From: Marsupella aquatica
Lineage: Eukaryota > Plantae > Marchantiophyta
Direction of reading: 5' to 3'
Assembly: GCA_973895155.1 (NCBI GenBank)
Contig: OZ316893.1
Coordinates: forward strand, 27,352,210 to 27,416,209
DNA length: 64,000 bases
In this document: positions 1-61,920 of the stretch, piece by piece
Layout: each line of letters begins with the position of its first letter
Position numbering within the stretch: the first letter of the stretch is position 1
Position numbers and translations under genes: made by a program
Notes under the pieces: model-generated
Told to the model about the DNA's origin: nothing
What the model saw: the letters and a program-made list of their open reading frames with translations, nothing else
The model's database searches: none

Positions 1-2402
1 TCGGCACAAACATCCGCAATAGTGGGTTTCCAATGCCTAGAACTCCCACCACGAGGATCCCAATTTTCCTTGATTGAGGAGACCCTCTCACAAAGGAATG
101 AAGCATACGCTTCCACAAAGTGTCTCTCATCTTGAGAGTCACAATAAACAAAGCATTTGCGTTGCACCAAGAATGTTGTCTTCATCACTTGACCACCCGA
201 GAAAAATCAAGAATCAAGTCTCCAGCTTCTGACAAGGATTCAATAATCCTCTGTATCATCCGCGTGGGTTTGGCATGTGGATTCACCCAACCACCACGAG
301 CACCAACTATCTCAAATCGAGGGGCCATGTGCAAAACCTTGGTTGCCTCTTCTGGGGTCAGCATCATTTTTAGATCTTCGGGTTTTGACACGTCGTCTGT
401 GTCAACCTTCGCCTTCCCAGTGTCAATCTTGGTGACCTCAAAATCAGTATCTTTTGAACCAAAAAAGAATTTTGGCTTTGGGTGATTGGGTTTGAAAACA
501 TCATTCCAATTGACATTTTTATCTCGAGAAATTCCTGCAAATATAACTTCTTCAATTCCGCCTCCCCAACACGAATCAAGCGGGTGCGGTTGATCCTCTC
601 GAGAATAACTCCCATACTCAATGTGAATGGTGAGAGATTTCTCTTGTCCCAATTTTCTAAGTGAGCTTAGGACATTCATTGCAAGAGGCCCCGGATGAAC
701 AGTTATGGCTACAACGATTGTAAGATTTCATGGTAGCTCCACAATGTATTGCAGAAAGACCAAAACTTCTGCTTCTGTCCACAGCTTCTGGTGATCTCGA
801 CTGAAGTCAACAATGGCAAGTGAGCACGTTGGAGATGATTCTTCTATTGCTGGTGGATCAACTGTTTTCATTAGATTGTCACTAAAGAATGTGACCCACG
901 GTTGGCTCCGAGAATGTGTCCCTCCGCCAAACTTCTGGCAATAAATGTCATCAAGGTGCATCACCAGAGCTATTGGCAAGATTGCACTCTTCCTGGTATG
1001 ATTTGGCTTCAACAGATTTGACAAAAAAACTTCACCAGCCGCTCTTCTGCATCTACTGAATTCTGCATCAACACTCAACAATGGCAGAACCTCTACTACT
1101 TTCTTCCAGTCGGTATCCGACGGGAAATTCCGTGGATCCTTGCCGAAGTAGTACTCTTCAATGAGAGACTTGAGCTTCCTCACTTTTTTCACATCCTTCG
1201 CAAGCTCCTCTATTGAGGGTATGTCAGATTTATTTGTGGCATCTTTCTTCAGCAATGCCTTTCTTGACTTCACTTGTGTCAGGATTTTTGTGATGTCTTT
1301 CTGTGAGATCAACTCACCATCAAAGGGACGAAACATGGCAACGGTAATTGCTTTTTTGGACTTGTTATTTCCTTCCACCCCAGCTCCATCAGGAAGTTTC
1401 CCATGCAACCACATCTCACAGACTAACCGCCACAACTCAAAAAGATGGTTGTCCGCAAAAAGTAGCCAGTATACATTTCGCAAGTCCTTCCTACCCATAG
1501 TCATTCTTGCCAGAGCCAACCAATCCTACAATCCAAAAGGAAAGCTAGTCAGTTATCCCCAACTCAAGGGTTGGAAAAAAAGGATTCTAAGTGCAAAAAT
1601 AGTTTTGGATTCCGATGGTCTCAATCAAAAACAAAACTCGTACTAAACATTCCAAAAGTTCCAATACTCTTTGACAAATCGTGTCGGACTGAGACCATCC
1701 GAATCCAATATAAAATTACTCTCTATGGTAGAGAAATGCACACAAAGTAATCACATTTCTTACCTGAAATTTTTGGTTGTCTTGAGCATTTGTTTTGTTG
1801 TCGCCATGTTTTGGTTTGTTTGGATTTCCACATTCAACAAACTGCCGCCTCGCATGGACAACTGTATCTTTAAAGCAAGACTGAAACACCATCGTGCTAT
1901 TGATGGCGTTCGATCTCATGGAGTGCTCAACAAGAATTGAAGACGGTGTGCGATCAGACAATATTCTGGATTTCCTAAATTCTAACTTCTTGGCCAACTG
2001 GGTGAGCTTGGCATCCTTCGTTGCCCAATCACGAATCCATCTCGCAGCTCTCGTAGAGTGCTGACCACTAACAGCTAGAAATTGGACCTCGCCCTTTTTC
2101 ACTCCGGCCAAAAAAGCCTTTCGGTCCGACTCCGTATTCTCAAAGTGGAGTACCTTTCTTCGCTCGACGTTAAAAGGAATCAAATCAGCGACATGTGGCT
2201 CATGCCCAGGTGTTTTGATCATGGAATCAGCAATGTCTTGCACATGATCAAAATTCATCATCCAATAGCACAGTCTCGTTGGTGCAGCAAAAATACTTTC
2301 AACTGGGATCAGAAAATTTTTGTTTATCTCAAAAGTATAGTATTGCTCCATTTGTTGAAGAACTTCATTCCCTTCTAAGACGTCTTTCTCCTCTGGAACA
2401 TG
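1..2402 (-). pseudogene. ParB/Srx-fold + beta-class DNA amino-methyltransferase-like gene (MTase2), 3' portion; two frameshifts; 5' end displaced by inversion
   Basis: ORF 1716-2441 has a ParB-like strand/helix FLAVSGQHSTRAARWI. GT-AG intron 1763-1526 joins it in frame to ORF 728-1519 (SLAIVDFSR at the motif IV position). Frameshift near 750 leads into ORF 185-679 (VNPHAKPTRMIQRIIESLSEAGDLILDF). One extra T near 203 restores DFFSGG (motif I) and an open frame to the window edge. Confidence 0.75.
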
Positions 2403-4039
2403 TGGCCAAGCAGCCGTCAGCAACATCAAAAGGTAAATCAAAAGCTAAACCTAAACCGCTGAGTGCAAGTGAAATCAAAATGAACAAGCTCTCTGGGCAT
2501 TTCAATTTGAGGGTCTTCAGAGCTCTCCAGGGGCTTTCCAATCAGGAGCATGTGAAGCGACTCCTAAACAGAGTAATTGGAAAGAAAATCACTCTAGAAC
2601 AAATGTTCAAAGAAGGTGAGACACTTAAGAAGTTGGCAAAGGTAAAGAAATTGTTCCTACAGATTTCTGGTCAAAAAGATTGGGCAACATGCCGGGAAAT
2701 GTTTCCCCAGGAAACCGATGTGAAAGTCCTTTCAACTTGGTGCGAAAAGCTCACAGAAGCAGTAAGCACAATGTCCTTATGGCTTTTTGTTTTCAGTTAT
2801 ATATATTCAAAGCAAACATTTGAGATATTGAATGCAGGTAGTGTGACTTGTATCACTGGTGGCATTTGAAATTTGTGTTTGGAAATCTTACAAAGAGTTT
2901 TGTTTAATGTGCAGTTCAAAATCAGTTCAAAGAGGAAGAAAAAAGTCATTTCTGGAAATGAATTTGATGAGGGCGTGGAGGTCAAGATTCCTTCATGCGA
3001 CATCCCCTACGTCTTCAAGAACTATGTTCTTGAAGCAATTGAAAAACACAATCGGAGACTGAATATCTCATCAATTGCTACAGCTTCATCTCAACATCAA
3101 TGGAAGAATGCAAATGGAGACGCATTCTCATATTCTCTTCATGTTGGAGATATTCGGAAACTAGAAACCTTTCTAGAGCCAAAACATTTTACTTTGGCAA
3201 TTGCAGACATCCCGTACGGTTTCAATGCCCCTGGTTCTCAGTTTGACGAGGAACCTTTCACTGAACAGGATGTAAATGAGATGGTTACTAATTTTGCTAA
3301 AATCACCACCTCTCCAATGTGGAGGTTTGTTGTGATCCATTCCTTGCAGCAGACAAATAGCGTTATGAGCGCACTTGAGAAGGTTTGCAATTGCGGAGTT
3401 GAGGCCGGTATATGGGAGAAGACAAACATCCATGAGCACCCTTCTGGGCCAAGGCTAGCTTGGGCCTTTGAGAACTGGTCAATTGGTTATTACAGTGAGG
3501 ATGGAGTCCAAAAGAAGGAGATGTACAATTTTGCTCCTGATGAGTCCAGGGTGAACATTGTGAAAGTTCCCTGTGTTACTACAAAGTCTGTGAGTCCATT
3601 AGGGTTTATTGTAAACCCTTACCAAAAACCAATTGCATTGGGTGATTGGTTTGTTAATCACTTCAGTGAGAAAGGGGACTGGGTGGTAGACCTTTGTTGT
3701 GGAACCGGGTCAACATTGGTGGCTGCACTTCTCAACTCTCGGAATGGGTGTGCTGTTGACAAAGGTGAGACTCAGGTAGAATTTTTGAGGAGTCGGATTA
3801 TGACATTGGAATCTGTTTGGACTCTATACAATGAAGCACAAGTGTCCGGTGAAGGTGGCCAGGGACAAGAAGTTCAGCCTCCGGTTGGTGGGCAGTTGGG
3901 AGTCATTGGTACTAGCATTTATGTGGATACTGATGACCAGGAGGAGCCTGAAGAAAGTGAGCCAAACATTGAAGAAAAGCTACCTAGAACACCAGAGGAG
4001 GATGTCGTGGGGATTCTTTGTTTAGTAAGTTCCTCCTAA
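2402..4039 (+). pseudogene. 5'-truncated duplicate of the ParB-MTase1 gene; intact beta-class N6A/N4C methyltransferase exon 2915-4039
   Basis: Motif IV-like LAIADIPYG precedes the motif X/I region NPYQKPIALGDWFVNHFSEKGDWVVDLCCGTGSTLVAALLNSRNGCAVD, which is the beta-class order. Intron 2762-2914 (GTAAGC...TGCAG) joins in phase 0. Confidence 0.85.
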
Positions 4040-4081
4040 GTATAGCTTAGTAGTATAGGATAGTAGTTTAAATTCTCGCAT

Positions 4082-4320
4082 ATGCAGTCTATAGTGTGCA
4101 TGCTACAGTGCACAACCTACAGTGTGCATGCTACAGTACACGGTCTACAGTATGCATGCTATATTGTTCGATCTACAATGTGCATGCTACAGTGCAAGAC
4201 CTACAGTGTGCATGCTACAGTGTACGATCTACAGTGTGCATGTTACAGTGTACGATCTACAGTGTGCATGCTATAGTGTACAATCTACAGTGTGCATGCT
4301 ACAGTGTACTGTCTACAGTT
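4082..4320 (+). repeat. Minisatellite, 14-bp subunits forming a 28-bp dimer (ctacagtgtgcatg ctacagtgtacgat)
   Basis: Read directly. The mirror copy at ~59975-60240 has about one extra 28-bp unit. Confidence 0.9.
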
Positions 4321-4538
4321 GCTCCACTCACGTAACTACAGTACTAGCACACTTACTTGCCTTGGATGTGTGACACATGGCTTCCATCCGTGTGCCATGC
4401 TTGATCCGTGTGCTTGAGGTGTGAGCACTATAAATAAAGAGGAGAGGGGCTCTCTCCCCTCACTCCCCATTTTTCATCAACTAAGTTGTGAAGTCTTAAA
4501 AATCCATTGGACTTGATGATCTCTTCTATGAATATAAC

Positions 4539-4801
4539 CCTTATGAAGTAGACCCACTCATGCACTCTTGCTTAGAGCTTCGGCTCGGCCAGGGATATTT
4601 TATATGAGTCGGACCTTCAGAAAGTGTTGTCATTTGATAGGAGATGGTTATTAAGTTCTAAAGAGTTGGAAAGTGCTCAACAATGCCTTGACATCATATG
4701 CTCCCTTTTGGGTGAAATCCTTATGAAGTAGACCCACTCATGCAGTCTTGCTTAGAGCTTCGGCTCGGCCAGAGGTATTTTGTATGAGTTGGACCTTCAG
4801 A
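4539..4801 (+). repeat. Two ~82-bp direct repeats 180 bp apart (ccttatgaagtagacccactcatgc...ggaccttcaga), downstream of a TATA-like box at ~4429
   Basis: Copies start at 4539 and 4719. The TATAAATA is followed by a GAGAGGGG...CCCCTC hairpin-like tract. Confidence 0.8.
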
Positions 4802-5177
4802 TAGTATTTTCATTCAAAAGAAGATCAACCTATTAAGATAAACATCTGCATGTATATACTTAGAGTTAACTCAATGCATGATATTTGTTTGAAATGGATG
4901 ATCTTGAATGATTCTATCTCCTGTCATTAGAATGAAAATTAGTTGGATGGAATATTTGATAGTACGATAATGCCCAGACCAGTACCTATTCTTCCTCTCC
5001 CTAATCCTTTCCTTATTAGAATTCATGTACTCCAAAAAGAGATAATGCGCCAGCATATGACTTTTCACTTTGGAGAAGCATTTGCAACTGCGGTATTAAA
5101 TTCAATAGAGCCAATTGTATACCCTTATGTAGGTTACGGGCAGGATTGGGCTTGCACAATTTTTATCTTGTATTGAG

Positions 5178-5387
5178 ATGGATCTCAACAAACCTCCCTC
5201 TGATGAGCCTCCCGTTTCTTTCTCGTTGGGAGATATTCATTTTGTAACTCGACCCAAGGTAGCTGCCAAGGAGGCAATAGTCCGTAGGTATGGAGAAAAG
5301 GGTTATGATGTTGTGCTTTCATCCACGGAACCGTTCCTTGTGGTGTCTGCTACCCGGTCTAGAATAGTAATCATGATCTTAACTTAA
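5178..5387 (+). CDS. Small ORF (69 aa) beginning with an EAR-like DLNxxP motif (MDLNKPP); copy at 58901-59110 (-)
   Basis: ATG-started ORF with DLNKPP. No evidence of expression. Confidence 0.3.
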   Translation: MDLNKPPSDEPPVSFSLGDIHFVTRPKVAAKEAIVRRYGEKGYDVVLSSTEPFLVVSATRSRIVIMILT

Positions 5388-5859
5388 GTTCTCTCTTGAC
5401 ACTAGCAGCCATAGGCCCGATGCTTCCTCAAGAACCACATTTTTCCCCCAGACAACGGGGAACTCAATGATATGTTGTTAGATTAGATGTGTGCAATAAC
5501 ACTATTGAGGATTTATCAACACTAGTGGAAAATAGTGTCCTTAATGACTAGAATGAGGACTGAAAAACGAGTCATATGTACCAATATATGACTAGAGATT
5601 TTCTGTCATACCTGCCTCATCTTTTAGGACAGTCAATTAAGACAAATGACTAAAACTCTCACCAGTCATTTATGGTAGTCCTGAATGACACAATATTTAT
5701 GAAATGACATGTTGTCCTAAATGACTGAATGAACGGCCGTCAGTCATTTAGGCATATCTTTAATGACACATATTTAAACAAATCATATTACAACACGTGG
5801 CAACTACACATGGTTGTCATTTCAGACATGTCATAAATGACATAATAATAAATCATTTA

Positions 5860-6165
5860 AGGTGTCATTTAGTGTGTCATTGAAGGTGTCGTACATGGTG
5901 TCATTAAAAATGTCATACAAGGTGTCATACAAGGTGTCATTGAGGGTGTCATATAGGGTGTCATTGAGAGTGTCATTGAAGGTGTCATTGAGGGTATCAT
6001 ACAGGTTGTCATTGAGGGTGTCATACATGGTGTCATTGAGGGTGTCATACATGGTGTCATTGAGGATGTCATACATGGTGTCATTTAGGGTGTCATACAT
6101 GGTGTCATTGAGGGTGTCATACAGGGTGTCATACATGGTGTCATTGAGGGTGTCATATAGGGTGT
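5860..6165. repeat. Subterminal 12-bp tandem array (ggtgtcattgag/ggtgtcatacat) of CACTA-1
   Basis: Read directly. The same GTCAT core recurs at the other end (21750-22135). Confidence 0.9.
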
Positions 6166-6522
6166 TTTTAAGTAATGTCATTTGGGATGTATCTAAGAAG
6201 AGCTCATAGTTATATTCAAAATCACATACAATGAATCCACTTAAACCCTAAACAAAGACATCCTTTGCGCATCATCATTGTATTAAGAAATTCACACTCC
6301 AACATTCACAAGCTCTAATATAGAATAATTGAAAAAACAGAAGTCATCATTGTATTCAGAAATTCACATTCCGACATTCACAAGCTCTAGTATAGAACAA
6401 TTGAAAAAACAGAAGTCTTTATGATGAAGTGATAGAAAGTACACATTTTTCACTCGCATGAGTGAAACAATGGTAACCAAAATATTCAAAAATTCTCTGT
6501 TCTACATGATCAGAGAAAATGT

Positions 6523-9280
6523 TCAACACTTTCGAAGAAACCTAGCATTCCACAATGTATTCATTCCTAACACATTCCGTAAGCAGAGTTGTTTCTCTTC
6601 TTTGTTGGGCATTGGCAATGCTGCATCACCACAATACACTGCCTTAACTGATACTCGCACCCAAGGACTCTCAATCATGACACAATGAAATTTATCCTAT
6701 CCTGGTAACCCTGTCACTTCACCTCTAGCAACAACTGTAGAGCGATCCACAACGCTTTGTACTTCTACAACATCTCCTTTTGAAAACTGCCACACAAAAT
6801 TGTTAGGACAAAATATTGTCTTGTAGTACTGATTTGGGCATATCATCAATTTAAGAACATAAACCAACTGAAAACAAATTCACCTTTGCTGCTGGATTTG
6901 GGGAGAGAACTGGTCCTCGTTCACTAGGTGAGATAGTGATAGGGGTTGTTTTCTTGAATCTCTTTGAAGGCCTAGGTGGTGTAGCCTCTTGTTCCTTAAT
7001 TGCATTTGACACTATCTGTTCATCTGTGATAGCAATCTCATCACTCTCACCATTACCAATGCTGCTTTGTACAATGCAAGGTTCTTGCAGTGCTCCCAAA
7101 TTTGCTTCTCCCGTACTTGGCTTTGGCTTCTGCCTTGTTAAAGTATCTGATTTCTCTCGCTGTGATACAGGATTCTCCCCTGAAGAAGCTACCACAAAAC
7201 CAAACAATGAATGTTTAGAAAACTTCATTCCAAATTGAAAAATAAATTATTGCATATGTAACATGTTTAGAGTATAAGTTTGTATGTTCTTACCATCACC
7301 ATCACCTGAGAAAGTAAGAGAACGTTTCCTGCTACTACCTTTAGGCTCAACCACCACCTTAGTAGCAATTGCATTTGATAATTGCATATGGAACTGATTC
7401 TGTTGATTTTGTGCAATGAAAGAAGTCATCATAGATGTCAAATTGTCCACTTTGAACTCAAGCTTGGTTAAATTCTCCACAGACTGTTCAAGCTTGAGTA
7501 ATCGAGCTGGTTCCTCAATTGTAGTTTCCCTAGACAGTGGAGTCTACATACACAAACACACCATACAATGTCAATCATCAATAATAATTTGAACATCATG
7601 GATAACTTATAATCAAAATTGAATATATATACAGGTTTTCATTACATACCGCTGATCCATGTGCAGATCCAATTCCAACAAAACTATTGCCTCGATGTTC
7701 ACCACTGCCCATAGATGGACTGATCTGCACTGGGGGGACTGGACTACTAGACACAAGTTTTGATATAACAGGGCTTGTCAATCCTTTTACTTTCTGGAAA
7801 CACATAATCACATTCAAAGCAATTAGAATATTAATGAGAACTCATCATGTCATTGTTTACTCCTATACTAGATAAACACTTCAATTCAAATGACAATCTA
7901 GACCTGCAGTGAGATGGACCATCTAAAGATTCTTACCAATTTTTTTCTGCTCCAGCAGCCCCTCCTCTTCCAAAATGCTCTTTGTTCACCACTTCTGCCC
8001 TCCTTGCTTTCATCACAGCACTCCTTGCAAGCAAAGCAGGACTATCAAAATGATCCACCAGTCGTGCCCATTTCAATGCGTCAACATATTGAGGTCCTGG
8101 TTTGGAGCGATCACGTTTATATACATCCTTCCAATAAGTATTTAGTTTGTGACGTTCTCTTTTCAATAACGTCCGACAGTGACTAATAAATTTCTTGTCA
8201 GACACTGACTGCTTATCTGGATACTCCCAATCTGCCTCCATCAATTTCTGCACATCCTCAATTATGTTTGGATCTTGTTTGTTCCAATCAGGTTGTGATA
8301 CATCAAAAAGCCTCAAGACATTGGCACGTAGCTCCTCCATCCAATATGGTTTATTAGGATGAGAATCATCAATATCATTGTCATGAATCTGATAACACCA
8401 CAAATGATAGTCATCAACATTGAGAATGAAACAAACACCCAATTGCTTCTGAGTACACAAACTGTAGGCCACAAATGTGAAATGTGCAATGAAAATCTTA
8501 CCGTTATCAATTTTCCCTTCTTATTGTCAGCCCTTCTTACACTACCGGTTCTCTGGAATTGTTTTTTGGCTTGCCTAGATTCCCTGCGTTGCTCTGTTGT
8601 AGTCTTTCTTCCCTCTACATACACAATGAACATCCAATATTGATCATCCACAATTGTAAAATGAGGGACAAGAAATATTACAATATAATAGGAGGACGAT
8701 TCATTGAATTTGACTTACCTGAACCCTGACTGGATGTCACTACTGTAGAGTGTCCAGATTTCCCAATCGATGTTGATGGAACCACCACTATACACATGCA
8801 AACCACTGCAATTATGAATCCAACATTCATATAGATCAACATTGAAAAATACATTGAAAATCTTTGAAATTACTTACATTCAAATAGCTGGCTAGTCACA
8901 GGGTCTTTGTAACATTGCACCATGCCACTCATGGAAGGTCCAACCTTTGTAGGGGTTTCTTTTGCATCTGCCAAGCTCTTGGATCAAGTTAAAACCAATG
9001 TTATTAAACAGAATCACTACCAATGTCTATAGTTTCCTCATATTGTTGGTGAATGTAATAGGAATCTCACCTTGGATGAACTTTGTGGTTTCTCATCTTC
9101 ACTGTACTCAGCATCAGTGTCATAATCTGATTCAGAACCCTCATCACCAGACTCTGCCATACTCACTGAGACAATTCTTGATAGTCTGGAGCTCTGTCTC
9201 CTCTGTGTGGTAACCTCACTTCTAGGAGTTCGACGTGCACTTGTTTTCTTCTTGCGCCCTATGGTCTGTGTTGCACCCAA
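6523..9280 (-). pseudogene. Multi-exon TnpA-like gene of CACTA-1
   Basis: Exon ~7933-8400 has W...HFGRGG of the plant Ptta/En-Spm type. Last exon ~6523-6787 reads KGDVVEV..VARGEVTG*..VRVSVKAVY..LPMP..TLW (Tnp1-type C-terminal domain, one stop). Several GT-AG introns. Confidence 0.7.
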
Positions 9281-9665
9281 TCTACATCAGAGAATATCAA
9301 TGAATGAATGACAAGTACCAACAACCAACTCATATTGCTGATGAGCAATATTAACACATCTTTGCACATTCAAAACAACATGCAAGATTATACTCACATG
9401 AAATTGAAATTTTCTCCAAATATCTCCTGAATTTTTTATTGTTGTCTGCTACCTTCTTATTTCGTTCCTCCTCATATGGAGGTATTCGCTGCATTCACTG
9501 CTAGACCATGGCATGCCATGTACGTTAGTATGATCCCACTATCAACTAAATGAAACCGGACTGTACAGTATCTTCAAACCATTCATTTCCTTTTATACTT
9601 TCTTTTTCCTTTGTCTGTAGTACTTGATCCAGGCTCCTGTCTAGTTATATAGGCTTCTGCCAACT

Positions 9666-12600
9666 CTATGTGAACTTAGCATTGTCATCCATAGTATCAT
9701 GGAAATCAACTTCCATGTAATCACCCAGCACCCTTGTAGACCTAGATTCCTTGTGGAGGATTGTCCTCCATGCAATCCCCTTATCATTTGGGTAAAAAAA
9801 CACCTGTTCTATCTGTCGTGGCAATACATAGTCCATTTTCTTGGAAGCACCCAGCTCCTTCTGAAAATTTACTTGCCACAATCCAGACGTATCATATCTC
9901 ATACTTGCTGTGGCTTTGGGAGTCCAAGATGGGTTTGCCCACCTTCTTTTGAAAAGGACCACTTCCTTTATCAGAGGCCCATAGTTCAACACTAAGATGT
10001 CTGTCAACACCCCCACATATTGTACAGATTCATCTACTGTTGCCCCTGACCTAATGACCCGCTTCTCAGTGAATGTACAAGCCATCCCAGAATCAAAAGT
10101 CTTGAACCCAGATGAGTCACAATCAATCAAGGAACCTAGTGATGGAATGGTCCTCCAATGGTGCCCATAGGCTCTGCAGGCCCTGTACCACAGTGCCTTC
10201 AGACTAGGTGGTACACTATACGCTGCCAACACCATTCGTTCAATCTCATTCTCAAAATTATGCCTTCTAATTGTCACTTCAAACCATTCTCTAAAAGGAG
10301 GCAACTCATCCAAATCAGAGGGATAAGGCACAGGATTCCTCCGATTTCCTGGATTCTTCATCCATTCTTTCCGGAAATCTGCTCTGTGCTTGGTAACTGC
10401 CTCCTTTTGATCATCATAAACCCTGCATGGCAAGAATGACAGTCAGCTCCTAGGCCCACACAATTTCTGCTCAAAACTCAATTATGTTTAATAATAAACA
10501 ACAGAGAACTTAACAATATAAACCATGCTCATACCTATACCATGGTTCCACCAGCTCTTCATTCTCTAGTATGTAATGATGCATAGCTATCATATCATTC
10601 CACTCCAAGGTGATATGTTTTCCAGCTCCTTCCAAGACAATGCCTGCAACACCAGGATTCTCCTCCAAGTCCCATGTTCTCATTCCTGTCCCCTTAACAT
10701 CGATCATGTATTCAGAAAGGAATCCTAAAGATTCATCTAGAAGGTAGCCTTCAGCCATAGAAGCCTCTGGACGTGCCTTGTTTCGAACATAACCCTTCAA
10801 GGTCTTTAGATATCTTTCTATTGGGTACATCCATCTAATGTTCACTGGACCACAGATGTCTAGTTCCTGAACCAGATGAATCAACAGATGGGTCATGACA
10901 TCAAAGAAGCTTGGTGGGAAATGAATTTCCATAAGGCAGAGTGTGAATGCAACATCCATCATCACAGAGTCGTACTGTGAGGGATCCCAAACCTTGGCAC
11001 AGATGGTACGCCACACATTGCTCACTCTGGCTATGGCCAACCGAACACCTTCATCAAGTAATCCCATTGTTGCCAATGGAAGGATTTGTTGCATGAGGTG
11101 ATAGAAATCGTGAGATTTCAGCCCTGATAACTTCTTCTTAACTGTGACACATTTAGCCAGAGAACTGCTGAAACCAGTGGGCCCTTTAAAGGTCAACAAT
11201 ACCTCTAAGAACTTAGTCTTCTCTGTCTTACTGAGGCAGTATGGGGCTGGCGGCATGATCTTTGAATCTTTTTTTGGATCTGGATTTGGAACCAGCCACA
11301 GGTGTTCCCGCACGTCCATGACTTTCATGTCTTCTCGAACAGAAGGAGTATCCTTTGTCCCCAAAATAGTGTGCACGATGTTGTGTGCAAGATTCTTCTC
11401 ACAGTGCATGGGATCCAAACAATGGTTGATGAGAAGTTTCTGCATTGGACGCACAGTTCAGTACAAACTAAGTTAGAATAAGAAATGTTACTCCTTGCTA
11501 CTTAACATTAATACACACTGAGGGATTCAGTATGGGAAACCAGATACTTACACTCCAGTACGGCAGCTTGTATAATCCAGTAACCCTCTTCACTCCATTC
11601 TTCTTTACTGGAGAGTTTTCATCATCCAGCGCATTCCCTGGTTTCTTCTCCACATATTTAGCGGCCTTTTCTCCCCAACATTTCCTATCAGAGCTGGACA
11701 CTCTACACGGTGCATCTCGTGCCTCTACCTCACCATTAAAGTATTTTGCCACTTCCTCTTTGCAAAAATAGTGCCTCTGTGGTAACCAGCGACGATGGCC
11801 AGCAAACAGTAACTTGCCCAACTATTTTGAACCATGTGCCACACAATTTGGCCCACAAACCACACATCCTTTGTACCCTGCATGTTGTTGGCCAGAGACT
11901 AATCCATATGCAAGATAATCATTGATTGTCCACAATACTGAAGCCCTTAGCTTGAACTCTTGCTGCAATCCTAGCCTTGGTAGAACATCAAAACAATCTA
12001 CTCCTTCTGACCATAATGTCTCAAGATCATCCACAAGTGGAGCCATGTATACATCAAATTGTTCCTCGCTTACAGACACAGGACCTGGAATTAGAAGAGC
12101 TAGCATGACAAAGAACTTCTTTGTGGAAAGCCAAGGAGGGATATTATAATTCAACAGCAGGATTAGCCATGTAGACCAGGCAGTAGAATTATTCCCAAAT
12201 GGATTTACCCCATCAAGTGCCAATCCCATTCGCACATTCCTTGGCTCAGCAGCAAAAGCAGGGTCGATCTCTGTGTCCACATGTTTCCATGCCTTTGAAT
12301 CTGCTGGATGTCGGACCATGTTGTCCTTGCTCTTGTTCTCATGATGCCAAGTCATTAGCTTAGATGTACCCTTAGTGGCATACAATCTCTTCAATCGAGG
12401 GATTATAGGGAAATATCTCAAGACCTTCACAGGTTGTAAAGAATTCCCCACTAACTTCATCTTTGGCTGATTACACTTGGAACAATTGTCCAACTCTGCA
12501 GTCTCATTTCTAAATAACATACATCCATTCTCACAGACTGGGATTCTCTCATAGTCTAAACCCAATTTTCTCAGTAATTGTTTTGCAGCATATAGGTTTT

Positions 12601-13285
12601 TAGGGAGAGTGTGCTATGTTGGCATTCCATGCTCAGTCAACAAAGACAGCATGGCATTCACTCCCGTGTTCGAGAACCTATTGTTGTGACAGATGTTTAA
12701 AAACAGCAACATGAAGGAAACTACATCTGTCTTACTGCCTGGAAATAAGGGTTTCATGGCTTCTTCTAAAGACCCTTGCAGAGGGACAGGATTTATAGGA
12801 TGCCCTGCTGTAGGTGTGTCCTCAGCCCTGGTCTCAGCAAAGGGTGGATCTGCCTCATTCTCATCATTTTGAAACATTGAATCTATATCAAAAGGAGGAT
12901 CATTATCCACATATTCGTCAGACTCTTCAGAAGCTCTTGCCAATGTCTCCTGAAGTAAAACTCTGACCTGCTCTTCAACATCTATTGATAGCTGGCCTGA
13001 GTGGAATGCCTCTCGAGACATTCCTGCCCTTAGTGCCTCTGTACCAGAGTTACGGATGTAATTGGATCTCCACTCCTCATCAGAAGAGTCTTCACCCTCT
13101 CCTACCCACACTCGACAGGCAGGGTAGCGGCCATATTTAAGAAGATGTTGTCGACTGGTCTTTCGAGTAGTCTTAACAATCCCTTTGCATTCCATGCAAG
13201 AGCAATACATTCTATGATCAGCACTACCAGAGCAAGCTGTCTGTTCCCGAGCCCATAAGTTATCATCACGATATGTACAAATCAA
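9666..13285 (-). pseudogene. CACTA TnpD/TNP2 transposase (transposase-associated Zn finger, Transposase_21, DUF4218, DUF4216) with in-frame stops at 12614 and 11822
   Basis: CSCMEC..HLLKYG; HPADSKAWK; RNVRMGLALDGVNPF; NIPPWL; LDPMHCEKN; GLKSHDF; FPPSFFDVMTHLLIHL; GPV..RWMYPIERY. Confidence 0.93.
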
Positions 13286-13942
13286 AATGTCATCAGTTTA
13301 CAAGACCAAAGAAAGGCCTACCTGAACCAGATTTAGGCCAAGGGTGTTCACAGTAGTCAGCAATCTCAGACCCTTCAAAACAGTGAGTACAATAAGAAAC
13401 ATTAATCATAATGTCCATCAATCCCCTCCTTCATTCTTTGACTTTTGAATACATTTGTTGAAAGTCCTCTTCAAATATATAGGCAATTTTTATTTGGGCA
13501 GGTACTAGAATAGATTCCACATCACAACATTTCATCATCCCCACACAAACCAGGATACATATGGACAAGGGCCTGAAAGGGTTTCATGTAATCTACATAA
13601 TTAAACATATAGTGTTTCTGTGCAGTAGTAAGAATGAAATACAGTCACTCAGTCTTCAAAATTATCAAAAAGGAGAAAGTTCTAAGACCCGGGTTGAAGG
13701 AGTTGTTAAGGGTGTTGACCTGGGTTTAGAAAGGCAGTACTACAAAACTTGAGAGACATTACGTGAAGTTTGCCTTGTTATGCCCAAATCCCTCAGTCAA
13801 AGGGACAACAAGAATTTTAAGACCTTGGGTGGATTTTAGGTCTTGCCTCTTAAGGTCAGTGTGATGTTTTTTAGTTCTTTTGTTATGTATCTCCATTCAG
13901 GCTCTTCATATGTTTGCCATTGACAAAACAGTCATCATACAA

Positions 13943-14389: not shown

Positions 14390-14612
14390 TACTATAACAA
14401 ATACAAGAAGCAATAATTTATCCAACCCAAACACTCAATGAAATTCATGCAACAATTTAAGATTCAACTATTTCATACAATCAGATAGTTAGTCCATTTG
14501 AGTTTAGTCCATTAGACAGTGTAGTCCACTTCATACTATAATCAAACATTTAGTCCACTTCATGAATACTTAATACTATGTCGTGTTGTCTACACAACTG
14601 AAGGCTTATGAT

Positions 14613-52583: not shown

Positions 52584-55500
52584 CTAAGTGTACTTGTCCA
52601 TCCTTTGGAGATAACTTTGGACAGCTTGTAGAACATTTCGAGGAATCTTCAAACCTCTGCCAACCATGTTTTCTTCCTTCATTCCAGATTTAAAACCATA
52701 CATTGCAGAATTTGTATACTGCCAATGTTGAGTGTTCTCACCAAATCCTTGATCTCGTTCCCATGTCTTGGTGGACATGAAACAATTGAGATACCTAGCA
52801 CTCTCACTCACATCAAGTTTAGGGTTTAGGCCTCCACCATTCCACGGGGAACATTGGAGCATATTGTTGAGTCAAAGGAGGGTCTCTTGAAGATGCAATT
52901 GGGACTTCATGCTTAGGGTCCACCTGACCCAAAGCTCTCACCAACCAGAAATGACCTCCACCATTTTTCTTCTCCCAATCATCCTCGGGTCGAAGAAACA
53001 CAAAGTTTCCTTCGACAAATATCCTGGAGGGGAATCCACCGTCCTTGTTCTCTCTCAACTCGAGATCCAACAAATGGTGCCGCTTGATCTTCCATTTCTT
53101 CCAAGACTTCATTTTGAAGAGCTGTCATCTCTGCATTCTCCTCATCTTCACTTAGAGGACCACTCTGTTTGCATGCCGATTGGTTGACCTTGTAACAAGT
53201 GCCATGGTTAGTCTTAGGCCAAAATCCATTTTTCAATGGAAATTGATTATTTCCCTCCCCTTCCATTGCAAGCCCATTTGACAACAGCTCCACAATTCTT
53301 TCCCAATATTTAACAAGAGGAAATATTTCCTTGTATGCTATTGACGTCTCATCAATGCAACTCCTTCTCAAAAAATCAAGGTACTTGTTAAGGAATGGGA
53401 TTATCTCTTCTGATTTTTTCTGTATCTCTCCTATGGATTTAGCTAAGGGTTGTCCACTGGGTAAAAGAAGAGAATTTGTTATTGGATCAGTTGCCCAAAT
53501 GCACCTTCCGCCAACGGGAGCCCAAGCTTGCTTAACATGGGACTTATACTGAAATATTGGTAACATTATCTCTCATAGAGAAAAGAAATGATACCGTTTT
53601 TGAGTGACCTTGAATATCTTTGACCTTAAAACTTTGAAGATATTCTTTGTAAGATGCAATTTCTTGTATCAATCTTGGAACTGGATGAATGCTCTCACAT
53701 TCCCAAACCTCTGCCATTAGTGCAAGAAGGGTTGCAACTTCCTTGTGTTGAACTTGATATGATACCTTGGAAAATAGTGCATCAACATCTTCGTGCGTAT
53801 GACCAACCATTAGAAAGGACATTTGAACAGTTTCAACTACTCCTCTACTCAAAGCTCCGAGCAAAATGCCATGACTTTTTGGTTTTTGTTGTCCTTTGCT
53901 GAATTATCGATTTGCAATGTTAGGTGCCTTGGCAAGGGCATGAACAACGGACTGCCCTTCTCGCCACCCACGTCCCCTCCATCATCCTCATCCTGTCGGG
54001 TTGGGATGGTCTCAGTCTGATTGTCGGCAGCTCCATCTTCAGAACCAATATACCTATTTACTTGAATATTCTTTGGTTCCAAATATCCCGACAAAAATGC
54101 ATCAAAGTCAAGTAAGGCTTGAAAGAAAGGTCTGTGAGGTTCCCAATGCAAGCCATCAAGCATGTCACCTGTCTTGTCTCCATTGTACTCTTCAAGATCT
54201 CGAAGACACTTAGCCAAGGATGTCACCATGAAATCTGCATCTCCTGGCCAAAGGCTAGTGACACTAAAGTGTGCATATACTCCTGGATCTCTCCCGTGGG
54301 TCAACATCCTCGTGAGAACAATAGGTAGCGGCATTCCATGACCCGAAAGTGATTTATGAGTACTAATCATTTTTGGAATCCATGTCTTTGCTTGATCCAT
54401 CTTGTCGTGAATAATGCAAAGATATTCTCCTGGATGTTGCTTGGCCATCACTCGATGAGCGTAGTAAACATATCTACGTGACATTTGCTCACAAAGATGT
54501 TGAGCTCTTTTTTCTTCAATTTCAGCACGTTCTTTTTTCCTTCTCTCTCGTATCAAACTGTCTTTGTATTCACAACAAAGCGTACACTTGGCAAATGCGC
54601 CATCCTTGTGAAAACTGAAGTTTGCAAATGATGTGCTCCATATCTTGTAGAGAGTGTTATCCGTAACAGGAGGAAGCCCTTCTTCCTTCATCTTTGTTCT
54701 CACATCTTCCAAAATCTCTAACTTTTTGTAATACGCTGGAAGTCAATACTCAATGCTGTCTGTCCCATGAGCTCCTCCATAAGGCATATGAGGCATTGGC
54801 TCTGCATTTTGAGTCAAAAATGCCTCTAGAAGAGCTCGCGCATGCAAGGTATTTGACCTTGTTTTCTTCAAGCCTGTGTTCCCATGGAACCCAATTTTGC
54901 AACCCTCCATGTATCTTCTCTTGTAATCATAATACTTGGTGTGACTAAAACCATGGATGGTTGCAAATGCATCTTTACAGATGACCATACCTTTGAGAAC
55001 ATGGTGTCCCTTATCACGAACATCATCCTCTCTGTAGTGGAAGAGGTTGAAAATGTGTGATGTTTTGGACTCGCTAGACATCCCGTGAAATTCCATCCTA
55101 ACATCTTCTATATCTTCCCTTGGCATAATGAGACAACATTTATGCTTGCAGCAATTTACTCTTTGATCTCATCAATTGCGGCTTCTGTTGTTTTTGAAAC
55201 TGCCTTGGTTTGCAAGAGCCTCCTTTTCTTCTCAACACGATCAACTTGATTCCTCTTGTTGAAGTTATATGGCCTTTGACGACATCCGGATGCGGATCCA
55301 ACCACATGATCCGGATTCAGATCATCCCTATCCATTGACTCCATATTCTCTGTACCTTCCACCAGAATGTCTGACAAAATTTTTCCAGTTGCTACTAGTT
55401 TTGTGTGATCAATTCGCCATCGAACCAAACTAATTACTCCCTTATGAATGCTTGGAAAGTATTGCGATTCCATGACATCTTTCACAGCAACCCCTACATA

Positions 55501-56389
55501 GTCTTCTCCCAGGATTTCATCATCAACAGCCGTCGTTGCTTGAGGCACAGTGATAGTCCCAGTGGCAACCTTACTCGATCATTCTGAACCAATGTATAAT
55601 TCGACCAACTCTAACATCCAGTTGGACCGTTGGTAATAATCAGAATGAGTTTTGGTCGATTTTGTTGATGGAGAATGTGAGACAAAACTCTCCTCAATTA
55701 AAACGTCGTCGTCACCTTGCTTCTTAGAGGAAGACTTTCTACCTTCATCAACATTCCAACCTTTTTTATGAACATCGGCCAAGTCCCAGAGAACCCATGA
55801 GTCTTTTGCCTCTTCAATTGTTTCAGCCCCATTATGTATGTAAGGTAAAGCCTTACTACCATGAATAACATCAGTGATTTTCACACTGATCCGAGACTCA
55901 CCAAGTAATATGTTGTGACATCGGTCCTTTGGATTTACCTTGAAAATAACTCCAAGGGCTACAAAACACCCATCCATGAGCATTTCAACCTCGTCCCCTT
56001 GCCTTAGAGTGTTTGATGCATCCTCCATAACAATTGTAGGAGATTTATCCAAGTTATTATCTGGTCGAGTTGAACAACTACCAGTACTGATGCGTTTTTG
56101 GGAATCTGGAGTTATAGAGAGATACGTGCACGAGATCTCCCAAATAACACATGAGTCAATGGCATCAAAAATATTTTCTACCCTTGGCAGTGGAAATGGT
56201 AGTTTTTGAGTTGGCTCAAAAACCTTCTCCACGAGCACACCAATTCGATTATCTCCCAACAATACGTTGTGCACCCTATCCTGGGGGTTAATTTTCTGAA
56301 CTGTCCCACAACCGACATCATATCCATCAATTGTCAAGGTCACATCATCACCTCTTGAAAACCTTCCAGTCATTCTTGGATTTAGTAAC
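52584..56389 (-). pseudogene. DUF7869/Sola-like transposase B with three N-terminal Tnp1-like domains; several frameshifts and stops
   Basis: CCKHKCC; VICKDAFATIHG; FAKCTLC; IIHDKMDQ; LQIDNSAKDNKN; FLMVGHTHEDVDALFS; C-terminal FVFLRP...FWLVRAL. Acceptor TGCAG at ~56390. Confidence 0.82.
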
Positions 56390-56489
56390 CTGCACAATTT
56401 TCAGAAAAACTATCACAAATCCGAATGACGAGAATTTGAAGAGACTCACAATTATCCATACGGTCATTTGATTGCCATTCCATGAATCC

Positions 56490-58141: not shown

Positions 58142-58833
58142 ATGGAAGTTGCCAAGAAAACCGTCATCATCCTGCTCGCCGAAGAATCTCATGACTTGGA
58201 TCTCTCCTCTGTCGATGATCTTGTGGCCCTAGCACTTGGAAATTCCCAAGAATTTCAATCACAAGTCCAAAGTAAGTTTCTGCAGGTTTATTCATGCATC
58301 TTAAGTTGTTGGATTCGGATGGTCCAAATCCAAGTGGGTTGTTTGGATTCGGACCATCCGAATCTGACTGGGTTGTTTGGATTCAGACCATCCGAATCCG
58401 ACAGGCTTGATTGGATTCGGATGGTCCAAATCCAAGAGGGTTATTTGGATTCGGACCATCCGAATCCAAGTGGGTTGTTTGGATCCGGACCATCCGAATC
58501 CGACAGGCTTGATTGGATTCGGATGGTCCGAATGCAAGAGGGTTGTTTGGATTCGGACCATCCGAATCCAAGTGGGTTGTTTGGATTTGGACCATCCAAA
58601 TCCGACAAGCCTGTTGGATTCGGATGGTCCAAATCCAAAAGGGAGGTTTGGATTTGGATGGTCCGAATCCAAGAGCCCTCAATCTCACTTTGACAGTGAT
58701 TTCTTGAAACAAATTTCATGGATTTGAAGTCTAATATGAATTTACACTCTCCAATGCAGAGAGTGATCTGGTGAATACAACTCTCGCCATTTCAGAGGCA
58801 GACTGCGACGATGGGCTCATTTTGGAGGACCAT
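58142..58833 (+). pseudogene. 5' end of the MTase2 gene: exon 58142-58271, intron, exon 58760-58833, cut at the inversion breakpoint
   Basis: MEVAKK...QVQ, phase-1 GTAAGT...TGCAG intron, KSDLV...GLILEDH. The final CAT codon equals the reverse complement of 2400-2402, which continues VPEEKDVLEG in frame. Confidence 0.75.
58311..58670. repeat. About 11 copies of the same 21-bp hairpin at 34-bp period, inside intron 1 of MTase2
   Basis: Starts at 58311, 58345, 58379, 58413, 58447, 58481, 58515, 58549 and onward. Confidence 0.92.
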
Positions 58834-61800
58834 TGTCTGGGGGAAAAATGTGGTTCTTGAGGAAGCACCGGGCCTATGGCTGCTAGTGTCAAGAGAGAAC
58901 TTAAGTTAAGATCATGATTACTATTCTAGACTGGGTAGCAGACACCACAAGGAACGGTCCCGTGGATGAAAGCACAACATCATAACCCTTTTCTCCATAC
59001 CTACGGACTATTGCCTCCTTGGCAGCTACCTTGGGTTGAGTTACAAAACGAATATCTCCCAACGAGAAAGAAACGGGAGGCTCATCGGAGGGAGGTTTGT
59101 TGAGATCCATCTCAATACAAGATAAAAATTGTGCAAGCCCAATCCTGCCCGTAAACTACATAAGGGTATACAATTGGCTCTATTGAATTTAATACCGCAG
59201 TTACAAATGCTTCTCCAAAGTGAAAAATCATATGCTGGCGCATTATCTCTTTTTGGAGTACATGAATTCTAATAAGGAAAGGATTAGGGAGAGGAAGAAT
59301 AGGTACTGGTCTGGGCATTATCGTACTATCAAATATTCCATCCAACTAATTTTCATTCTAATGACAGGAGATAGAATCATTCAACAAAAAGATCATCCAT
59401 TTCAAACAAATATCATGCATTGAGTTAACTCTAAGTATATACATGCAGATATTTATCTTAATAGGTTGATCTTCTTTTGAATGAAAATACTATCTGAAGG
59501 TCCAACTCATACAAAATACCTCTGGCCGAGCCAAAGCTCTAAGCAAGAGTGCATGAGTGGGTCTACTTCATAAGGATTTCACCCAAAAGGGAGCATATGA
59601 TGTCAAGGCATTGTTGAGCACTTTCCAACTCTTTAGAACTTAATAACCATCTCCTATCAAATGACAACACTTTCTGAAGGTCCGACTCATACAAAATATC
59701 TCTGGCCGAGCCGAAGCTCTAAGCAAGAGTGCATGAGTTGGTCTACTTCATAAGGGTTATATTCATAGAAGAGATCATCAAGTCCAATGGATTTTTAAGA
59801 CTTCACAACTTAGTTGATGAAAAATGGGGAGTGAGGGGAGAGAGCCCCTCTCCTCTTTATTTATAGTGTTCACACCTCAAGCACACGGATCAAGCATGGC
59901 ACACGGATGGAAGCCATGTGTCACACATCCAAGGCAAGTAAGTGTGCTAGTACTGTAGTTACGTGAGTGGAGCAACTATAGACAGTACACTGTAGCATGC
60001 ACACTGTAGATCGTACACTATAGCATGCATACTGTAGATTGTACACTGTAACATGCACACTGTAGATCGTACACTGTAGCATGCACACTGTAGATCATAC
60101 ACTGTAGCATGCACACTGTAGGTCTTGCACTGTAGCATGCACACTGTAGATCGAACAATATAGCATGCATACTGTAGACCGTGTACTGTAGCATGCACAC
60201 TGTAGGTTGTGCACTGTAGCATGCACACTATAGACTGCATATGCGAGAATTTAAACTACTATCCTATACTACTAAGCTATACTTAGGAGGAACTTACTAA
60301 ACAAAGAATCCCCACGACACCGTCGTCTGGTGTTCTAGGTAGCTTTTTTTCAATGTTTGGCTCACTTTCTTCAGGCTCCTCCTGGTCATCAGTATCCACA
60401 TAAATGCTAGTACCAATGACTCCCAACTGCCCACCAACCGGAGGCTGAACTTCTTGTCCCTGGCCACCTTCACCGGACACTTGTGCTTCATTGTATAGAG
60501 TCCAAACAGATTCCAATGTCATAATCCGACTCCTCAAAAATTCTACCTGAGTCTCACCTTTGTCAACAGCACACCCATTCCGAGAGTTGAGAAGTGCAGC
60601 CACCAATGTTGACCCGGTTCCACAACAAAGGTCTACCACCCAGTCCCCTTTCTCACTGAAGTGATTAACAAACCAATCACCCAATGCAATTGGTTTTTGG
60701 TAAGGGTTTACAATAAACCCTAATGGACTCACAGACTTTGTAGTAACACAGGGAACTTTCACAATGTTCACCCTGGACTCATCAGGAGCAAAATTGTACA
60801 TCTCCTTCTTTTGGACTCCATCCTCACTGTAATAACCAATTGACCAGTTCTCAAAGGCCCAAGCTAGCCTTGGCCCAGAAGGGTGCTCATGGATGTTTGT
60901 CTTCTCCCATATACCGGCCTCAACTCCGCAATTGCAAACCTTCTCAAGTGCGCTCATAACGCTATTTGTCTGCTGCAAGGAATGGATCACAACAAACCTC
61001 CACATTGGAGAGGTGGTGATTTTAGCAAAATTAGTAACCATCTCATTTACATCCTGTTCAGTGAAAGGTTCCTCGTCAAACTGAGAACCAGGGGCATTGA
61101 AACCGTACGGGATGTCTGCAATTGCCAAAGTAAAATGTTTTGGCTCTAGAAAGGTTTCTAGTTTCCGAATATCTCCAACATGAAGAGAATATGAGAATGC
61201 GTCTCCATTTGCATTCTTCCATTGATGTTGAGATGAAGCTGTAGCAATTGATGAGATATTCAGTCTCCGATTGTGTTTTTCAATTGCTTCAAGAACATAG
61301 TTCTTGAAGACGTAGGGGATGTCGCATGAAGGAATCTCGACCTCCACGCCCTCATCAAATTCATTTCCAGAAATGACTTTTTTCTTCCTCTTTGAACTGA
61401 TTTTGAACTGCACATTAAACAAAACTCTTTGTAAGATTTCCAAACACAAATTTCAAATGCCACCAGTGATACAAGTAACACTACCTGCATTCAATATCTC
61501 AAATGTTTGCTTTGAATATATATAACTGAAAACAAAAAGCCATAAGGACATTGTGCTTACTGCTTCTGTGAGCTTTTCGCACCAAGTTGAAAGGACTTTC
61601 ACATCGGTTTCCTGGGGAAACATTTCCCGGCATGTTGCCCAATCTTTTTGACCAGAAATCTGCAGGAACAATTTCTTTACCTTTGCCAACTTCTTAAGTG
61701 TCTCACCTTCTTTGAACATTTGTTCTAGAGTGATTTTCTTTCCAATTACTCTGTTTAGGAGTCGCTTCACATGCTCCTGATTGGAAAGCCCCTGGAGAGC

Positions 61801-61920
61801 TTTGAAGACCCTCAAATTGAAATGCCCAGAGAGCTTGTTCATTTTGATTTCACTTGCTCTCAACGGTTTAGGTTTAGCTTTTGATTTACCTTTTGATGTT
61901 GCTGACGGCTGCTTGGCCAC
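58833..61920. repeat. Right arm of the 3.05-kb inverted duplication
   Basis: Reverse complement of 2402-5455. Confidence 0.95.

Follow-up and report, generated by a model that had tools for sequence, protein, structure and literature searches.

A nest of plant transposons in the 64-kb stretch of Marsupella aquatica DNA analysed here (the window) likely contains a genuine inversion spanning some 53 kb. Its probable source is recombination between two copies of a long terminal repeat (LTR) together with imprecise repair, and not a staggered cut. In the model that we favour, at a probability of roughly 0.55, two independently inserted LTRs in opposite orientation recombined, while the other end of the segment was copied 1.6 kb past the LTR and rejoined at a 6-bp microhomology. 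The window contains no N and its minisatellites are resolved. It was compared with contigs from four public sequencing runs (X1-X4), which contain only 57-65% of the window's words and thus do not derive from the window's individual. Both of the split genes described below belong to families that are multi-copy in these runs, so that a single copy is not established as the source of both halves of either gene.

Two arms, at 2402-5455 and 58833-61920, lie in inverted orientation and align over 3091 columns with 97.8% identity, which bears out the 3.05-kb inverted duplication described in an earlier note on this DNA. They differ by 31 substitutions and two indels, one of a 28-bp minisatellite unit and one of 6 bp; these differences do argue, as the note maintained, against an assembly duplication, but they are silent on the orientation of the middle. 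Each arm is composed of 1.6 kb of a methyltransferase gene (MTase1) and a complete 1.45-kb solo LTR. The left arm carries, in inverted orientation and as delimited by arm alignment, a copy of the MTase1 3' part that retains the intron and lacks the 5' end (2402..4002, + strand), followed by the left LTR (4003..5454, + strand; 1452 bp, TGTCG...GACA, with a 28-bp minisatellite at 4088-4319). The right LTR occupies 58834..60319 (- strand), its 3' terminus being the right breakpoint. Beyond it lie the 5' frames of MTase1 up to the LTR insertion (60320..63808, - strand), comprising an N-terminal frame (63808-62771), a ParB-like frame (62562-61456) and a methyltransferase exon with DIPY and CCGTG motifs.

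The LTR belongs to a high-copy family, both termini adjoining many unrelated flanks in other copies: unrelated loose (unmatched) contig ends stop at 4002/4003, and loose ends precede 58834 in all four runs (3, 2, 13 and 10 contigs; agreement 0.46-0.63). Its TG...CA termini, short inverted ends and 4-bp target duplication are those of a solo LTR. Sequence comparison places the 5' copy of the ACGG target duplication at 60320..60323 (- strand) and the 3' copy, from LTR insertion in MTase1, at 5455..5458 (+ strand); the pair is therefore split, with one copy on each arm. At the right LTR end the window reads CCAT (58830..58833, + strand), where contig comparison shows that intact copies of a second methyltransferase gene (MTase2) carry CCGC in exact register, so that both LTR sites in the window, ACGG and the CCGC of intact MTase2, are of the form NCGN. 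Such a site also ends four of the eight listed loose-end rows abutting an LTR terminus (GCGT, CCGT, ACGC and ACGA), as against a CpG frequency of 0.02-0.04; the other four are ACAA, AAAA and two rows that stem from a single probable internal flank at 4002, and all rows are consensus letters from mixed contigs. Internal sequence of the LTR element (primer binding site, polyprotein) was not recovered, a purine-rich flank at 4002 in X1 and X2 being suggestive only.

Removal of the LTR and one ACGG copy restores a homolog-like C-terminus to MTase1. Its last codons and stop (ELNDMLLD*; 5459..5486, + strand, recognized by comparison with homolog C-termini) now lie about 55 kb from the 5' part of the gene, in inverted orientation. 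When all 127,952 positions of the window were scored against the C-termini of four homologs, this C-terminal 8-mer came out best. The junction at 5455/5456 is native insofar as these codons, read as GELNDMLLD* (5459-5486), come next. That at 61920/61921 is native by a different line of evidence: an X1 contig matching from 2402 has 230 loose letters, of which the 30 listed are the flank from 61921 onward. The proposal that each arm pairs a native junction with a broken one thus stands on both native sides, but a solo LTR with its 4-bp target duplication sits in the 5455/5456 junction.

MTase2, a transposon cargo gene, is split in the reciprocal manner. Its 5' part (58142..58831, + strand) comprises the MEVAKK exon (58142-58271), a minisatellite intron and exon 2 from 58760; its 3' part (188..2407, - strand) comprises a ParB-like exon (2407-1764) and frames at 1525-731 and 727-188, with run contigs extending to 2407. 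The MEVAKK exon was rightly attributed to MTase2, since the continuation of exon 2 in X1 and X4 contigs matches the N-terminal motif of homologs; exon 1 itself has no significant match among the fetched homologs, and its link to them passes through that continuation. A 16-bp motif is confined, within the window, to 1605-1708 and 56.5-58.7 kb (26 matches). Both split genes, MTase1 taken with its convergent transposase and MTase2 with its 5' and 3' halves, are oriented as an inversion predicts, and this reciprocal orientation argues for the inversion and for the ancestral order formerly proposed, namely the left flank, the reversed middle and the right flank. The proposed in-frame rejoining of MTase2 fails, however. 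The note had fused GAG GAC CAT, ending at 58833 (+ strand), with CAT GTT CCA GAG, starting at 2402 (- strand), into ...GLILEDHVPEE..., but run contigs continue differently on both sides. Contigs of X1 and X4 show no difference over 58719-58831 (113 bp) and then read (ED)RDPGFWWGLE, and those of X1, X2 and X4 extend through 2407, the listed loose end of X1 and X2 being SLHAEDEGDRP-HVPEE. The two halves are some 270-325 codons apart in intact copies, such that about 0.8-1.0 kb has been lost here; the missing stretch was not found elsewhere in the window by tblastn or by counting matches (3 versus 2.99 expected).

The two broken junctions are of different character. On the right, the break coincides to the base with the LTR terminus. 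On the left, the junction is a putative 6-bp microhomology common to intact MTase2 and MTase1 (2402..2407, + strand), deduced from where contig matches end (loose ends past 2407 in X1 and X2, and an X4 match that stops at 2407); what the contigs themselves read at the six positions is not among the letters listed. Of the contigs listed from X1-X4, none crosses the left or the right broken junction, and none covers an arm from end to end. We considered whether the ATGG beyond the right LTR might be a primer binding site, which would make that junction native; this was rejected, as intact MTase2 continues there and none of the listed contigs bridges 58833. An initial deletion followed by a break at the CAT, a sequence of events that would save the note's joining of MTase2, is likewise disfavoured, as it makes coincidences of both the five further shared bases (2403-2407) and the NCGN register.

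The components of the arms have diverged to different extents. Substitutions separate the two LTRs at 21 of 1452 sites (1.45%) and the MTase1 parts at 7 of 1592 (0.44%; Fisher P 0.004), a contrast that falls to P 0.07 once CpG changes are set aside; the LTR may owe its higher divergence to heavier methylation. The seven substitutions between 2402-3993 and the right arm, polarised with run contigs, are derived on the left in three cases and on the right in four. Both arms share nine differences from run contigs in the MTase1 portion, while the 287 bp of LTR that could be polarised show none shared and six private (P 0.046 for the contrast), a test weakened by the LTR being younger than its host element. 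The arms are identical over 989 bp (2985..3973), with P of 1e-4 to 8e-4 over the whole arm and 0.009 inside the MTase1 part; this tract may reflect later conversion or chance. Purifying selection is a disfavoured source for it, given that two of nine coding substitutions are synonymous. With regard to possible chimerism of the LTRs, the copies are identical over their first 175 bp (P 0.08), the longest identical LTR run. Finally, arm alignment places three substitutions within 6 bp adjoining the LTR (3997..4002, + strand), a cluster that gives the left arm AGGA in place of the right arm's ACGG target copy.

These features can be assembled into the following scheme. An LTR inserted into the last codons of MTase1, generating the ACGG duplication, and a second, reversed copy of the family would have inserted into exon 2 of MTase2 at CCGC, which may later have become CCAT through two methylation-type transitions. 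Exchange within the LTRs would then have joined the 5' part of MTase1 to the reversed middle; the presence of the ACGG copies on different arms would follow from such an exchange inside the LTRs. The reciprocal end consists of a 1.6-kb MTase1 copy joined to the 3' part of MTase2 at the six shared bases, presumably by repair copying with loss of about 0.8-1.0 kb of MTase2. The exchange and the repair may have been one event or two. With 1.6 kb copied past the LTR, the new duplication would account for only that much of the 3.05-kb arm. In favour of two LTRs are the breakpoint at the LTR terminus to the base with CCGC in register, the split ACGG pair and restored MTase1 C-terminus, the three times greater divergence of the LTR than of the MTase1 part, and the distribution of shared (MTase1) versus private (LTR) differences from contigs. 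Against them, the change from CCGC to CCAT needs two transitions next to 113 bp otherwise identical to the family, and insertion of the second LTR cannot be closed, its other target copy having been lost. This model leaves both the AGGA cluster and the 989-bp identical tract unaccounted for, and they too are counted against it.

Other histories can be drawn for the same arms. If the inversion were real but only a single LTR had been present, the whole 3.05-kb arm would have been duplicated at once, by staggered breaks (the note's model) or break-induced copying, with MTase2 resected by about 0.9 kb and AT added as filler. This accounts for the pairing of a native with a broken junction on each arm of the inverted duplication, dispenses with the second insertion and the double transition, and can appeal to CpG/CHH transitions for part of the excess LTR divergence. 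We nevertheless regard it as unlikely, since the break must then have hit both the exact end of the LTR and, in register, an NCGN site, the three-fold divergence contrast between LTR and MTase1 parts stands against it, and the in-frame rejoining is refuted from both sides. New LTR cDNA might instead have been joined by integrase at the MTase2 site through one end only, its free end recombining with the resident LTR in one event; one-ended joining of this kind is a mechanism from retrovirus work. The exact LTR end, NCGN register, LTR divergence and absent second target copy would all be accommodated, and the sequence outcome is the same as, and here inseparable from, that of our preferred model, but the two target transitions fit an older insertion better than the age implied by 0.44% MTase1 divergence, and we hold this to be very improbable.

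The remaining alternatives dispense with the inversion itself. Two neighbouring LTR-bearing MTase1 elements could stand head to head, one cut by LTR-LTR deletion and the other by microhomology deletion, the MTase2 halves belonging to different copies. Both families are multi-copy in the runs, and the outer element ends lie beyond the window, outside any element-level comparison of target duplications; yet two independent truncations must then have happened to produce halves of two genes that complement each other exactly, reciprocal and inverted, which makes this distinctly unlikely. It could also be supposed that duplication and deletion are real and the middle is unflipped in the organism, the assembler having switched strand inside the 3-kb inverted repeat. 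From the anatomy of the arms, all four junctions are identical whether the middle is flipped or not, a 989-bp identical tract exists, and none of the listed contigs spans an arm. The split ACGG, on the other hand, locates the strand switch within the LTR, whose longest identical run measures 175 bp, unless it was the native copy that later acquired the AGGA change; and the absence of N from 64 kb, together with the resolved minisatellites, suggests long reads spanning 3 kb. Such an artefact seems quite improbable. The middle is likely flipped, though no listed contig spans an arm to prove its orientation. Since the four junctions also exist with an unflipped middle, the PCR across them that had been suggested cannot test the inversion, nor can junction PCR separate such an inversion from an insertion.

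Comparison with described inversions helps to place recombination between two LTRs with imprecise repair. As described in PMC3355041 and PMC7584159, which cite Ranz 2007 and Kehrer-Sawatzki 2005, staggered-break inversions are flanked by several kb of inverted duplicated DNA with one native junction per arm, as here. In the cases described there, however, the duplicated DNA is single-copy, whereas 1452 of 3054 bp in this arm are a high-copy LTR with its terminus at the breakpoint, and the arm may be of two ages (0.44% versus 1.45%; P 0.004, but 0.07 with CpG changes excluded). Unlike a staggered-break rejoining without loss, this one lacks some 270-325 MTase2 codons. The view of the 3.05-kb arm as one staggered-cut product is accordingly not sustained, as half of it is an LTR ending at the breakpoint, with split target duplication and three-fold higher divergence. 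Inversions by ectopic recombination between transposable element copies, including 2z3, resemble this locus in having opposite-orientation copies at the breakpoints and a split target duplication. The repeats there are DNA transposons and those here LTRs; both target pairs are exchanged there, while here the ACGG pair is split and the other is half lost, with its remaining side altered; and 2z3 involved no deletion or duplication, in contrast to 1.6 kb duplicated and about 0.9 kb deleted here. The locus thus behaves like this class at one end only. At the other, it resembles the breakpoint duplication of Drosophila subobscura O7, attributed in PMC7584159 to repair by BIR/MMBIR followed by MMEJ, in that the duplication is interpreted as a footprint of repair synthesis ending at microhomology; O7 as described there had no recombining repeat pair, whereas LTR homology likely starts the event here. 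The LTRs themselves share TG...CA ends, a short target duplication and NCGN preference with Phygy retrotransposons, which PMC6317226 describes as Physcomitrella-specific, but are only solo LTRs in the window, with no polyprotein for tree placement.

Several other elements lie within the inverted segment. A CACTA element (5520..22157, - strand) with an intact CAA target duplication is nested there and is not the cause of the inversion; a second is nested at 24783..34509 (+ strand), with an intact ATT duplication and terminal 16-mers alike at 10 of 16 positions. Alternative transposition by CACTA was rejected, as both elements are inside the segment with intact 3-bp duplications, and no pair of terminal inverted repeat and target duplication was found at either break. 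A 2OG-Fe(II) dioxygenase frame (45657..46478, - strand; DIOX_N E 7e-22, 2OG-FeII_Oxy E 5e-11) is likely a host gene carried passively within the segment. No host gene was found at either breakpoint, nor any tRNA gene, within the 64-kb window. A DUF7869 transposase-like gene (22296..24385, - strand; E 4e-50) is convergent with MTase1 in the same element, and a second, in several frames, was recognized by domain matches at 52822..56400 (- strand). The convergent DUF7869/MTase1 layout recurs in metagenome loci L002, L003 and L006 and at the end of L004.

The DUF7869 transposons carry an N6/N4-type methyltransferase gene. The MTase1 exon, scanned on the left copy, matches N6_N4_Mtase (PF01555) at 32.3 bits, above the cut-off of 26.7, the last frame of MTase2 matching the same domain weakly and below that cut-off (19.4 bits, E 0.0011). 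A D[IV]PY motif is present in MTase1 and 22 of 26 homologs, with no match listed for the other four; Calypogeia fissa has a 55% homolog, in line with a host lineage among early land plants. The ParB-like region has no Pfam match at E 0.01, its Atlas look-alikes being DUF3723 (31% of members, score 0.95) and ParB_N (35%, score 0.92, rank 24). A search of solved structures gave weak matches only, to N4CMT and M.RsrI (E 0.012-0.023). MTase1 is comparable to MpDN4MT1a/b of Marchantia, likewise an early-land-plant protein whose amino-methyltransferase domain is of beta-class type, and one described in bioRxiv 10.1101/2021.02.12.428880 as a host sperm gene with a TSPPY motif. It lacks the TSPPY of MpDN4MT1-type N4-cytosine methyltransferases, however, having instead DIPY, a long N-terminal region and a DUF7869 element setting. 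Our literature search, whose coverage excluded subscription papers, returned no paper naming DUF7869 and, among the papers listed, none describing methyltransferase-carrying elements of this kind.

The rearrangement is a known kind of event, ordinary though neat, and a single one among nested transposons, where neither breakpoint yielded a host gene, has little importance by itself. The locus does serve as a warning that an inverted duplication at inversion ends can be read as staggered breakage if repeat ends and target duplications go unchecked, and that even a convincing in-frame rejoining can mislead toward that reading. It is a tentative and rather doubtful proposition that the locus combines a fully readable inversion mimicking a staggered break, produced at one end by recombination of LTRs and at the other by copying during repair, with bryophyte DUF7869 transposons whose bacterial-type amino-methyltransferase, with its conserved DIPY and CCGTG motifs, is an active mobile 6mA/4mC writer in land plants. 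The association of DUF7869 with a methyltransferase, a side finding, could nonetheless matter more than the inversion, since a conserved gene for an N6/N4-type methyltransferase would make such a transposon family a candidate mobile source of DNA methylation other than 5mC among early land plants.

Self-comparison of the window, which contains no N, yields a single long inverted match (2402-5458 against 61920-58830), and end-to-end alignment of its arms, 2402-5455 on the left and 58833-61920 on the right, gives 31 substitutions, a 6-bp indel and one 28-bp minisatellite unit. The inverted duplication with scattered differences described in the earlier note is thus borne out, and the codons quoted there are present in the sequence. 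Each arm comprises the 3' 1.6 kb of MTase1, one of two transposon-borne methyltransferase-like genes split across the duplication, and then an element of 1452 bp that is bounded by TGTCG...GACA. Contigs of four public sequencing runs (X1-X4) served for comparison; the runs share just 57-65% of sampled words and hence do not represent the same individual. Unrelated flanks precede 4002/4003 in these contigs, and precede 58834 in 3, 2, 13 and 10 contigs of the four runs, which identifies the 1452-bp element as a repeat with exactly these ends. We read it as a solo LTR; no internal sequence was recovered.

MTase1 (60320-63808, minus strand) is an intron-containing gene whose Pfam N6_N4_Mtase score exceeds the cut-off and whose DIPY and CCGTG motifs are conserved in homologs. 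On the right arm, ACGG stands ahead of the LTR; on the left arm it stands behind. Once the LTR and one ACGG are removed, the C-terminus reads ...KLPRTPDDGELNDMLLD*, resembling homolog termini (e.g. TPTEEDLNELLLD, RTPNDADFNEMLMD); when scored against the C-termini of four homologs, which had been selected for mutual likeness, its terminal 8-mer ranks best of all 127,952 positions in the window. From 61921 onward the 5' part has a native junction in an X1 contig. Behind the MTase1 homolog, a head-on DUF7869 gene lies in three of nine metagenome loci (L002, L003, L006) and at the extreme end of L004; L001, L005 and L007 lack a DUF7869 match there, and L008-L009 yielded no rows in this comparison. 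The same layout is matched by a DUF7869 transposase-like gene, convergent with MTase1, at 22.3-24.4 kb (22296-24385, minus strand), which argues that the MTase1 5' part and the left end of the segment between the arms were formerly contiguous.

The right breakpoint coincides with the LTR terminus to the base, and the four bases ahead of it are CCAT, as against CCGC in intact copies. A target preference for NCGN is reported for Phygy elements (PMC6317226). NCGN ends four of the eight flank rows listed at this LTR's ends, these rows being mixed consensus letters, against a background CpG frequency of 0.02-0.04; the ACGG in MTase1 also fits. CCGC becomes CCAT through two substitutions, a G-to-A within a CpG and a C-to-T where the C can be methylated. 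We read the right-hand LTR as a second, independent insertion. Two points count against this reading: both changes lie in sequence that otherwise matches the family exactly, and the second target copy is lost.

The earlier note had the two halves of MTase2, the other split gene (188-2407, minus strand; 58142-58831, plus strand), rejoin in frame at a shared CAT. This fails from both sides, where the contigs continue differently. On the left, contigs of X1, X2 and X4 match MTase2 as far as 2407; the loose end for X1 and X2, SLHAEDEGDRP-HVPEE, has the spacing of homologs (e.g. VLHPEDDSCPQD-APEE), and the six bases 2402-2407 are common to MTase2 and MTase1, making this a microhomology junction. 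On the right, X1 and X4 contigs agree with 58719-58831 without a difference and then read RDPGFWWGLE, which fits the FKWGLE/FVWALE/FSWAIE motif in the N-terminal region of homologs, so that the MEVAKK exon is the MTase2 5' end, as the earlier note had supposed. That motif occurs at none of 127,996 translated window positions. Among the 39 homologs whose upstream sequence was available, six yielded such a motif, 264-319 residues ahead of the VPEE position; by this spacing MTase2 lacks about 270-325 codons between its halves, and these were not found elsewhere in the window. Since intact copies have GAC CGC at the place in question, the CAT overlap is most likely coincidence. MTase2 is a distant methyltransferase-like gene; no DPPY-like motif was seen, AIVDFS occupies its likely place, the last frame ends LILDFSRVVK, and the gene is possibly inactive or frameshifted. 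Upstream and divergent lies a second DUF7869 gene (52822-56400, minus strand). An inverted pair of about 100 bp at 1605-1708 carries the motif that builds minisatellites at 56.5-57.3 and 58.3-58.7 kb, and X1, X3 and X4 contigs skip 116 bp at 1655-1772.

Comparison of the arms gives 7 differences over 1592 sites for the MTase1 parts against 21 over 1452 for the LTR parts (P 0.004; P 0.018 without the minisatellite, P 0.07 without CpG changes); neither count includes a cluster of three changes at 3997-4002. The seven MTase1 substitutions are derived three times on the left arm and four on the right, and the nine differences from the contigs that both arms share indicate that the 1.6-kb copy derived from this very element. 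Over the 287 bp of LTR compared, six differences are private (four left, one of them also a minor family variant, and two right) and none is shared. A 989-bp tract of the MTase1 part (2985-3973) is identical in both arms (P 0.009 given seven changes), possibly from later gene conversion. Beside the left LTR, this AGGA cluster at 3997-4002 comprises two C-to-G and one G-to-A change in six bases; the resulting GGAGGA is also found at 58824-58829, close to the opposite breakpoint, and either coincidence or a templated patch may lie behind it.

Where copies in opposite orientation recombine ectopically, their target duplications end up exchanged (PMC3355041, PMC2775673). Inverted duplications of DNA that had been single-copy arise from staggered breaks (PMC3355041, PMC7584159), and repair synthesis that ends at a microhomology can produce them too (PMC7584159). 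The locus combines an ectopic-recombination signature at one end with a repair-synthesis signature at the other. With a probability of roughly 0.55, we favor a course in which two LTR insertions would have been followed by exchange within the LTRs, repair would have extended 1.6 kb into MTase1, and its end would have joined MTase2 at the six shared bases with the loss of about 0.9 kb. A one-step duplication with a single LTR, the staggered break of the earlier note included, would dispense with the second insertion and is unlikely. Two truncated copies with no inversion are slightly less probable still. An assembly flip is improbable in turn, even though a flipped and an unflipped middle have all four junctions in common, and among the contigs listed none spans either an arm or one of the broken junctions. 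One-ended cDNA integration seems the least plausible. The earlier observation is borne out in part, and its interpretation is likewise supported in part. The inversion itself is likely real, repeat-guided and contained within transposons, and is a further instance of an already known kind of event.

Two CACTA elements (5520-22157 and 24783-34509) were considered as its cause and ruled out; both keep their target duplications and are passengers. The first carries a PHD_NSD zinc-finger reading frame (14616-15467, minus strand), a chromatin-reader-like cargo, and a 408-bp tandem array near its right end (19091-21317); the second has a frame at 29066-29878 (plus strand), SET-domain-like by eye. 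Pieces of decayed retroelements occupy 36349-43009, among them a direct repeat (74%) that pairs 36349-36762 with 42595-43009, an RNase H-like frame of copia type recognized by eye (39124-39813) and an integrase fragment with a weak rve match (40286-41269).

A sole homolog with a species name, 55% identical, comes from Calypogeia fissa and makes a bryophyte host probable. MTase1 has 26 homologs at 51-74% identity. By motif it is not a member of MpDN4MT1, with DIPY in place of TSPPY. The middle domain may be ParB-like, and 'Sola-like' is a possible label for DUF7869. DUF7869 elements may carry a conserved N6/N4-type methyltransferase gene, a candidate transposon-borne amino-methyltransferase; among the listings of a literature search, no published description of DUF7869 elements with such a gene was found. 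These elements merit separate study.
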